From: Psychrobacter sp.
GTDB taxonomy: Bacteria > Pseudomonadota > Gammaproteobacteria > Pseudomonadales > Moraxellaceae
DNA length: 36,611 bases
Direction: 5' to 3'
NCBI RefSeq assembly: GCF_035469765.1
Contig: NZ_DATIRM010000119.1
Location: forward strand, 1-36,611
This document shows, one piece after another, positions 23,244-24,259 of this stretch. Position 1 is the stretch's first letter, and each line of letters begins with the position of its first letter. A model generated the notes under the pieces. That model was not told the origin of the DNA. It worked only from the letters and a program-made list of their open reading frames with translations, and ran no database searches. The translations under genes were made by a program, and so were the position numbers.

Positions 23244-23810
23244 ATGAGCTATGCTAACACCGAAGTTGCCCAAATCGCAGCTATTAGTAGCAATCGCTGT
23301 ATCGGCAAAGGAAATGCTCTACCGTGGCATATCTCAGCTGATTTGCAGCATTTTAAAAAGATGACGACCAAACCAAATGATGGCGCGATACAAGGTATCG
23401 TCATTATGGGTCGCAAGACGTTTGAGTCTATGGGCAGCAAGCTTTTGCCGAAACGTGTGAGCTTTATTATCAGTACCCAGCTGGATTATGCTGAGCAAAA
23501 AGGCTTAGTCGGCAGTGACAAAGCTTATGTTATGCATAATTTCGACGATGCCTTAACACAAGCAGCAAGCCTTGCTCATGGTGCGCATCTTGATACGATT
23601 TGGGTAATTGGCGGCGAGCGCGTGTTTAGTGATGCGTTGATGTACACGGATCGTATCGAGTTAACCCACGTAGATACTGAAATCACTGATGGCGATGCCT
23701 TTTATCCTGAATTGCCAAGTGAGTTTGCAGTAGCGGAAGAATCTGAGCAAATGCATGATGAAAAGAGCGCGTTAGATTTTAGATTTGTGACTTATAAAGT
23801 AGAAGCCTAA
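23244..23810 (+). CDS. folA: Dihydrofolate reductase
   Basis: IGKGNALPWHISADLQHFKKMT, IMGRKTFES, VIGG and GDAFYP; follows thyA. Confidence 0.96.
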   Translation: MSYANTEVAQIAAISSNRCIGKGNALPWHISADLQHFKKMTTKPNDGAIQGIVIMGRKTFESMGSKLLPKRVSFIISTQLDYAEQKGLVGSDKAYVMHNFDDALTQAASLAHGAHLDTIWVIGGERVFSDALMYTDRIELTHVDTEITDGDAFYPELPSEFAVAEESEQMHDEKSALDFRFVTYKVEA

Positions 23811-23878
23811 CGTCGTTTAGTCTTCTATTCAACTTTAATAAGATATAACTTAAGAGGAGAAGCCAAATATGGAAAATT

Positions 23879-23909
23879 AAAAAAGCTCAGCAAAATTAAT
23901 TGCTGAGCT
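23879..23909 (-). terminator. Intrinsic terminator oriented for a minus-strand transcript
   Basis: AGCTCAGCAA-AATTAA-TTGCTGAGCT 10-bp stem. The A-run 23879-23884 gives a U-tract only on the minus strand; on plus the stem is followed by CAAAAAA. Confidence 0.75.
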
Positions 23910-23990
23910 CAAAAAACTTTTAGATAAGACAACTATGGAGCTAGACTCCATTGTTAGCTGAAGCATAAAGTTTATTTACCTTGGTAGGGT
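23879..23990 (-). ncRNA. Putative ~110-nt small RNA divergent from the 43-aa peptide gene (candidate antisense regulator)
   Basis: Bounded by a predicted minus-strand promoter and minus-strand terminator; internal hairpin 23931-23955 whose arms are complementary to the peptide mRNA leader. Transcription is inferred, not shown. Confidence 0.5.
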
Positions 23991-23996
23991 TCATAT

Positions 23997-24025
23997 ATTT
24001 TATAGCAAATGCTAATAAACGTCTA
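23997..24025 (-). promoter_or_regulatory. Putative sigma70 promoter of the divergent sRNA
   Basis: Minus strand TAGACG (24020-24025)-17 bp-TAAAAT (23997-24002). Confidence 0.5.
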
Positions 24026-24027
24026 CG

Positions 24028-24065
24028 TCTCCATTGTTGTGATATTTTCATCATAACTATGGAGG
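24028..24065 (+). promoter_or_regulatory. SD-sequestering hairpin in the peptide 5' leader
   Basis: CTCCATTGTTGTGAT (24029-24043) pairs with ATCATAACTATGGAG (24050-24064): 14 of 15 positions pair, including one G-U, and the stem covers the GGAGG SD. Confidence 0.75.
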
Positions 24066-24070
24066 TCATA

Positions 24071-24202
24071 ATGGCCATTCAATGCGGTTATCCTAAAGCT
24101 GTGCACGTACGTTGGTACTGGAGATATAGATTTAATTGTTGGGAACACGTTTGCGAGCATTGCCGCAGTTATCCAAATCAGCAGTTGAGTTTTGATTTTT
24201 AA
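24071..24202 (+). CDS. 43-aa Cys/His/aromatic small protein with C-terminal QLSFDF motif
   Basis: GGAGG at 24061-24065, ATG at 24071, sequence MAIQCGYPKAVHVRWYWRYRFNCWEHVCEHCRSYPNQQLSFDF, and a terminator right after the stop. It is the C-terminal part of track ORF 23981..24202. Confidence 0.7.
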   Translation: MAIQCGYPKAVHVRWYWRYRFNCWEHVCEHCRSYPNQQLSFDF

Positions 24203-24223
24203 TAATTAAAATTTTCTAATACT

Positions 24224-24259
24224 AAAAAGACAACAGCCTAATGGTTGTTGTCTTTTTTT
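24224..24259. terminator. Terminator between the peptide gene and uvrC (bidirectional, better on plus)
   Basis: AAAAAGACAACAGCC-TAAT-GGTTGTTGTCTTTTTTT; the G-U wobble and longer T-run favour the plus strand. Confidence 0.85.

Follow-up and report, generated by a model that had tools for sequence, protein, structure and literature searches.

Almost all type I toxins are membrane peptides, with SymE and RalR as the accepted non-hydrophobic exceptions (PMC4147584, available portion). Those of the tisB/istR type are mostly hydrophobic, and tisB needs 5' processing and a standby site (PMC4147584, same portion). In timP, long-range pairing with an upstream site opens the SD stem-loop without processing, and the TimR sRNA favours the locked fold (PMC13000454, available portion). 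TimP targets the membrane (PMC7667032, available portion). The locus described here belongs to a Psychrobacter sp. (contig NZ_DATIRM010000119.1) and lies in a window of 36,611 nucleotides, which is the whole stretch of DNA that was analysed. Judged from its sequence, it likely works like a type I toxin-antitoxin system of the timP kind, with a soluble product that is non-classical and a toxin role that is putative. The reading favoured here, at a little less than an even chance, is that a read-through message, an SD opened by an upstream element (A), an antisense RNA that locks the SD again and a clamp-binding peptide together form a type I toxin-antitoxin-like brake on replication.

The small ORF of the module runs on the plus strand from an ATG at 24071 to a TAA at 24202 and encodes 43 amino acids. 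It was identified from the ORF list, its translation, a match to the PHROG 21154 profile and its pattern of substitution. A comparison of 19 distinct coding sequences gives a pN of 0.06 and a pS of 0.65 (pN/pS 0.09), and by this measure the ORF is a real gene under purifying selection; the ORF and its GGAGG SD (24061-65, plus strand), both proposed in the initial annotation, were confirmed. Upstream lies folA (23244..23810, plus strand), the end of an lgt-thyA-folA run taken from the ORF list, with gene names read from the translations. An intrinsic terminator follows right after the ORF, as had been claimed, at 24224-24257 on the plus strand. Its hairpin is kept in relatives despite changing sequence, and because A's are present on its left side too, it is probably bidirectional and common to the convergent uvrC (stop 24275). 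Terminators are more frequent than chance (4 found, 1.1 expected), and all elements of the module exceed chance once their conservation in relatives is counted.

Among the 25 genus genomes first examined, the folA-uvrC site was found with the module in 5 and without it in 18, and it could not be parsed in 2. The module is an insertion into an otherwise empty folA-uvrC site. In L011 and L019 the same intergenic region holds a different short lipoprotein-like ORF, so that it appears to be a spot for small insertions. Other candidates in the region were rejected: a 73-aa TTG-start extension of the ORF is interrupted by stops in relatives, and a minus-strand 29-aa ORF carries a frameshift in L005. 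A role as leader peptide was also rejected at this locus, because the ORF is followed by a terminator and then by no same-strand gene; the copies of the module at nrdA-nrdB may have such a role.

On the minus strand, a sigma70-type promoter match (TAGACG-17-TAAAAT, 24025-23997) is followed by hairpin 1 (23910-23878), a predicted intrinsic terminator whose U-tract is found on this strand only; the terminator match itself is at 23910-23883. Together they would define an antisense RNA of about 113 nt (23878..23990, minus strand, its 5' end placed from the -10 box), fully complementary to the read-through leader, element A included, and with a fold z of -4.43. The promoter match by itself is at chance level (5 found against 3.7 expected). 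Across the genus, 13 of 19 leaders have TAGAC[AG]-17-TAAA[AG]T as their best match, five more keep the -10 with another -35, and one does not; the motif recurs in L053, which is unrelated in sequence. Moreover, hairpin 1 varies in 8 cells across the 18 distinct leaders compared, and all of these variants still pair, as G·U, when read on the minus strand but are mismatched on the plus strand. The promoter and the terminator that the initial annotation had placed on the minus strand are therefore conserved elements, and an antisense RNA made from them likely exists. RNA-library contigs cover the module in X1, and a contig of X3 spans 23721-24073; these contigs are strandless and may be DNA. The raw reads of four runs do not cover the locus. 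In the wider family, 26 of 62 groups have a hairpin with an A-tract upstream, compared to 10 of 88 control genes, and strictly minus-only hairpins were not enriched (12/62 groups against 10/88 controls, p = 0.24). Rfam gave nothing at gathering score in the window, where its 27 weak matches are all far below the cut-off, and in 20 family loci it gave two matches, neither inside the module. The spacer of the antisense promoter contains a 12-nt near-palindrome (window 24003-24016), which is tandemly duplicated in L059, L065, L073, L074, L076 and L078, where it replaces the -35 box. On one strand, the loops of the upstream A-tract hairpins of L165, L195, L122, L170, L148, L046 and L069 are often GUUGGCGC, GUUAGCGC or GUUGCAGC; we take these loops to resemble the U-turn kissing loops of antisense systems.

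The SD of the small ORF is predicted to be buried in a plus-strand hairpin (24029..24065), in which the anti-SD arm B (24029-39) pairs with the SD arm (24054-64). The hairpin of 24029-24064 has a z of -3.98, and none of 200 shuffles was as stable. It is conserved in relatives, and the burial of the SD that had been proposed at first was upheld. Across the family the SD has a median accessibility of 0.32, compared to 0.48 in neighbouring genes (p = 2e-5), and SD sequestration in mRNA structure, a type I trait, is accordingly found in silico. Further upstream on the plus strand lies element A (23930..23940), a predicted anti-anti-SD activator, which also pairs locally with 23946-55 as the left arm of a weak hairpin. 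The right arm of this hairpin 2 is element A' (23946..23955), which is poorly kept and is deleted in L078. The initial annotation had described two 10-mers shared between the divergent RNA and the peptide leader. These are present (23931/24055 and 23946/24029), but in each place they are the two arms of one hairpin.

Four pairings between the upstream hairpin and the SD hairpin are possible, and in the window all are similar in strength. The first interpretation of the locus was built on pairing in trans: a divergent sRNA would bind the SD arm of a separately promoted leader mRNA, as in tisB/istR. In the window genome the sRNA matches the SD arm at 10 of 10 positions, and the two trans pairings (-17.0 and -17.3 kcal/mol, the latter for the SD arm) are stronger than the plus-strand A:B duplex (-14.8 kcal/mol). 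Among 20 genus leaders, however, the A:B duplex reaches -12.4 kcal/mol or lower in all 20, whereas sRNA:SD arm is above -10 kcal/mol in 4 (-5.9 to -9.9) and sRNA:B in 9; in this comparison B was not placed automatically for L051 and L055, nor was it for some non-Psychrobacter leaders. Counted by paired cells, A:B holds in 174/180, and sRNA:SD arm comes near to it with 169/180. In L051 and L055 a change in A goes with one in the SD arm, which speaks for trans pairing. The other sRNA arm holds against B in 148/172 cells and is broken in the remaining 24, and its pairing would open the hairpin, not close it. A:A' is paired in 141/172 cells with 8 gaps. Moreover, the trans pairing is not above shuffles in L053, L060, L063 and L081, its target SD arm is already paired, and a suitable plus-strand promoter for a separate leader was not found. 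A free-standing divergent sRNA acting in trans was therefore given up as the main reading, since A:B is better kept and the leader promoter is missing from the matches. We judge it improbable overall; in the window it could still apply, because there the trans pairings are perfect and slightly stronger.

The preferred cis reading draws its strongest evidence from distant leaders. Perfect 12-bp A:B helices are found in L081 and L063, which are unrelated in sequence, and a strong helix is found in L060. When all 11 Moraxellaceae groups are combined, p is 0.002 for the plus strand and 0.76 for the minus strand, with the A:B signal absent in 4 of the 11. By these comparisons, plus-strand A:B is the best-kept pairing through sequence turnover in Moraxellaceae, and this turnover is stronger evidence for A:B than are changes within the close set. 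Among the 18 close leaders no two-sided compensatory change was found in A:B, only one-sided G·U changes; the shuffle control for compensatory change was uninformative, and these leaders are kin rather than independent observations. That lack of compensatory change, together with the lack of a family-wide signal, would fit a further explanation in which the gene is real and its upstream hairpins are passengers of a mobile cassette, hairpin 1 stopping stray antisense transcription and A:B being a by-product of duplication. In the window A equals the SD arm, from which the pairing with B follows by duplication. The persistence of A:B in leaders of unrelated sequence and the conservation of the promoter, the uORF and the strand-specific G·U pairs argue against this explanation, which we regard as very improbable.

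Folding of longer transcripts is consistent with the A:B switch that we prefer. In the window, the RBS opening cost is 16.1 kcal/mol for the leader alone and, with the upstream part included, falls to 7.7 kcal/mol in the comparison with shuffles and to 9.5 kcal/mol in the masking series. Masking the antisense footprint returns it to 14.9 kcal/mol (against 9.5), and masking A alone has nearly the same effect (14.7 against 9.5), whereas masking A' alone gives 10.0. In all 19 genus leaders the cost with the true upstream sequence is lower than the mean of the shuffles, and in 18 of them it is lower than in each of the 8 shuffles. Masking of the antisense footprint raises the cost by at least 3 kcal/mol in 24 of 25 leaders. 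At equilibrium, the long transcript of the window is predicted to be 95% locked and 4% in the A:B form. Over 61 other groups the upstream opening effect was not significant (38/61, p = 0.19). The switch signal is, on this evidence, limited to Moraxellaceae and not significant outside, and it is in Moraxellaceae only that long-range opening of the SD stem-loop of the timP type was found in silico.

A plus-strand RNA that contains A would need read-through from folA, because no plus-strand terminator was found between the folA stop and the 43-aa ORF and no usable internal promoter was found at 9/12 matches, in a consensus scan that may miss one. folA is thus the likely source of transcription into the module. 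Along this path lies a feature absent from the initial annotation, a plus-strand mini-uORF (23855..23880) with the SD AGGAG at 23855-59, an ATG at 23869, the codons for M-E-N and a TAA at 23878-80 that runs into the A-tract of hairpin 1, the antisense terminator. Its SD, ATG and TAA are invariant in 18 of 18 leaders, while the flank (0.60) and spacer (0.83) vary. Different mini-ORFs occupy the same spot in L050, L053, L063 and L081, the start is lost in L102, and many other groups have a long gene that stops 150-260 nt upstream of the small ORF. We infer that a ribosome finishing at hairpin 1 belongs to the design. The possibility that MEN* is the relic of a longer gene was rejected, as the mini-ORF of L050 is separate from the 166-aa gene there and L053, L063 and L081 have their own. 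An unannotated 165-aa protein precedes the module in L060 (1825-2319, minus strand) and in L050 (802-1299, plus strand); the two are 45% identical, and no Pfam or NCBIfam match was found for them. The acidic C-terminal codons of this gene supply the SD of the mini-uORF.

The 43-aa protein matches the PHROG 21154 profile with an E of 1.3e-6, as do 31 of 31 alignment members. This PHROG is unnamed and has no assigned function, and its members are found on phages, plasmids and chromosomes. The protein was found in 22 of 154 genus, 24 of 301 family and 9 of 401 phylum genomes (counts that include the window genome), in line with the patchy distribution named beforehand as support. Homologues at E<=1 are present on 66 plasmid and 55 phage records, and a genome scan that demanded an HCRS-type motif gave further ones in alpha-, beta- and gammaproteobacterial and Bacteroidota genomes. 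At E<=0.001 there were 36 matches, of which 33 were judged family members and 3, to repeat proteins, were left out; 8 profile matches without a parsable core or start were also left out, and 155 loci were collapsed into 62 groups. Family members are mostly unannotated, or the annotation is on the wrong strand. No credible family model was found in Pfam or NCBIfam, and nothing credible in the PDB by sequence or by fold. The ESM Atlas, queried with homologue P0002, returned three unnamed clusters at 0.85-0.86, which serve as leads only. The top BFVD structural match (E 0.23, 56% identity) is UniProt Q9KXF6, the uncharacterised H0092 of phage VT2-Sa, which belongs to the same family as the window protein; the VT2-Sakai member, unlike the window protein, has no tail. 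The libraries searched link neither PHROG 21154 nor Q9KXF6 to a function, to RNA control or to a clamp motif. The open literature gave no published description of the family, subscription papers and bioRxiv supplements being outside the search, and no papers were found for the family motif strings; the supplements of the Sakai small-gene paper, which may give coordinates only, contain none of the three strings (PMC5597208).

Some copies lie close to each other or to other small genes. Two different family members are about 2.2 kb apart on one viral contig (L168:2665 and L168:4854), and genome G396 also holds two. In L117, L128, L161, L174 and L188 the family gene adjoins an IS1595-family transposase gene, which suggests that these members are carried as passengers. 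Other tiny conserved-looking ORFs lie 150-250 nt upstream of the family ORF in L043, L044 and L046, and another, at L040:3120-3332, flanks a family member; one such flanking ORF is annotated as DUF3892. These tiny ORFs and family members may form small-gene cassettes.

The 43-aa protein is modelled as an extended beta-hairpin whose tail is loose (mean pLDDT 83). It is Arg-rich, with a GRAVY of -0.65 and a best 19-residue hydropathy of -0.34; the window peptide is therefore not the hydrophobic transmembrane peptide of classical type I systems, and the soluble effector suggested at first is supported by this value and by the beta-hairpin model. The tail ends in QLSFDF (residues 38-43), a clamp-type motif. 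Among 149 distinct proteins, 67 have a tail of at least 5 residues, and 56 of these 67 carry a clamp-type motif compared to 3 of 1635 long-ORF ends in the window genome, by a loose pattern written after the tails were seen. The strict motif is Q-aliphatic-x-[LM]-[FL] or Q-aliphatic-x-[LM]-x-[FL] (PMC11139829, available portion). It is found in 12 of 18 tailed groups and not in the window QLSFDF, which has F at position 4 instead of L/M. A model of the peptide in complex with DnaN of the window genome scored 0.67 against 0.00 for the best control; of the solved pairs 116 of 157 attained the mark, of the mismatched pairs 2 of 215. The runs agree in at least 92% of contacts, with a partner pLDDT of at least 66, and residues 38-41 contact DnaN 175-180 and 385-391, the pocket that an alignment of motifs equates with that of H175 and M362 in E. 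coli. The tail is thus predicted to sit in the canonical DnaN pocket; since solved clamp-peptide structures exist, the pass may reflect memory of these complexes and show likeness only. With this qualification, the tailed homologues and the model support a clamp-type C-terminal motif in the putative effector, for which a possible clamp target had been suggested at first.

The remaining 82 of the 149 proteins have no tail, which implies a function for the core itself. All invariant residues of the family (V, V, Y, R, R, E, V, R, P) lie in the core, and Cys5 and Cys31 co-occur (both in 129, neither in 17, discordant in 3, in a sample skewed to proteins with the HCRS motif), a pattern that points to a structured core with a task of its own. 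These observations would fit a non-toxic stress accessory under the same RNA switch, whose core binds nucleic acid or protein and whose optional tail tethers it to the clamp. The position of the module within or after housekeeping units (thyA-folA and nrdA-nrdB, for example) and the lack of a PADLOC match among 31 members are in keeping with such a role. Layered translational locks with an antisense RNA are, however, typical of harmful products (PMC13000454, available portion), and the distribution is patchy and mobile. We consider the accessory role possible and, on balance, unlikely.

The gene neighbourhood points to replication stress, by association only and from a scan limited to the HCRS-type motif. 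Of the 20 distinct genus leaders, 18 have folA upstream, one has nrdA and one the unknown 165-aa gene, and nrdA is also upstream in three other groups (L053 by Pfam; L063 and L068 read from sequence). The module follows nrdA in L063, L068, L102 and L133, and lies between nrdA and nrdB in several Moraxellaceae. Behind these nrdA-nrdB copies comes a hairpin that lacks a U-tract, and L063 and L068 have a further short ORF there. In 9 of 48 groups the gene directly upstream is HExxH IrrE-like, and in 3 of these its protein has a clamp-type tail of its own. HTH-peptidase pairs regulate defence operons after DNA damage (bioRxiv 10.1101/2022.04.27.489752, available portion). IrrE/ImmA-like HExxH proteins that end in clamp-type motifs were observed at L100:3290-3769, L124, L165:359-841, L171 and L195:3296-3769, and in the L165 and L195 groups the tail is on the upstream HExxH protein and the small protein has none. 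Other copies adjoin phage repressors, IS1595 transposases or DUF3800 genes.

In the favoured brake reading, the message for the 43-aa protein would arrive by read-through from folA, and its element A would pair with the anti-SD arm B, so that the SD hairpin opens. The antisense RNA would cover A, and the SD would be locked again. The peptide would be made when transcription of the host operon outruns the antisense RNA, as under replication stress or DNA damage, or when the antisense RNA decays after transcription shut-off. The mini-uORF may park a ribosome at hairpin 1 and thereby protect or refold the leader, which is the weakest step. The peptide would then compete with polymerases for the clamp pocket and slow replication. 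The module is likely a type I toxin-antitoxin-like brake because binding of its product to the beta-clamp is predicted and would likely slow replication; we infer the existence of both transcripts, the conditions of peptide release and the competition with polymerases. A more far-reaching version, which we hold to be doubtful, describes a widespread, promoter-less cassette on DNA-precursor and DNA-damage operons, a uORF-primed switch between a constitutive antisense RNA and host transcription that would release a clamp-blocking beta-hairpin of 4-5 kDa. Its target operons would be thyA-folA, nrdAB, HTH plus IrrE-like pairs and phage repressor regions, and, if true, it would be the first family of clamp inhibitors under the control of an RNA antitoxin.

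If an antisense RNA does control a soluble clamp ligand of 43 residues here, the type I systems would gain a new target class, and a minimal inhibitor of natural origin would be at hand for an antibacterial target that has been much studied. Although common, the family escapes annotation, as it has no Pfam, NCBIfam or PADLOC model, and the switch gives clear predictions for mutation and rescue.

Compared with timP/TimR, the locus shares, as predicted features, an SD in a stem-loop, opening by a long-range upstream pairing and an sRNA that favours the lock (PMC13000454, available portion). It differs in that TimP targets the membrane whereas the window peptide is soluble with negative GRAVY (PMC7667032, available portion), and in that the antisense RNA is predicted opposite the leader itself and a promoter of the module's own was not found. 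With tisB/istR-1, shoB/ohsC, zorO/orzO and dinQ/agrB it has in common a small protein with a locked 5' leader, and an sRNA gene that points away from the ORF and does not overlap its start (PMC4147584, available portion). Unlike in these systems, the target with the best support here is an activator element carried by a read-through message. Its likeness to beta-clamp ligands lies in a terminal QLxLF or QLxLxF-like motif, here with a predicted place in the canonical pocket (PMC11139829, available portion). The known ligands are large enzymes or regulators, and the one predicted here has 43 residues. The SocB toxin, which is also comparable, is controlled by proteolysis and not by RNA. In inc/repZ of ColIb-P9, which controls a plasmid replication initiator, a cis antisense RNA blocks an activator pairing that translation needs, and a short upstream ORF is involved. 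The locus resembles this system, compared by logic only, in the antisense block of an activator pairing and in its short uORF.
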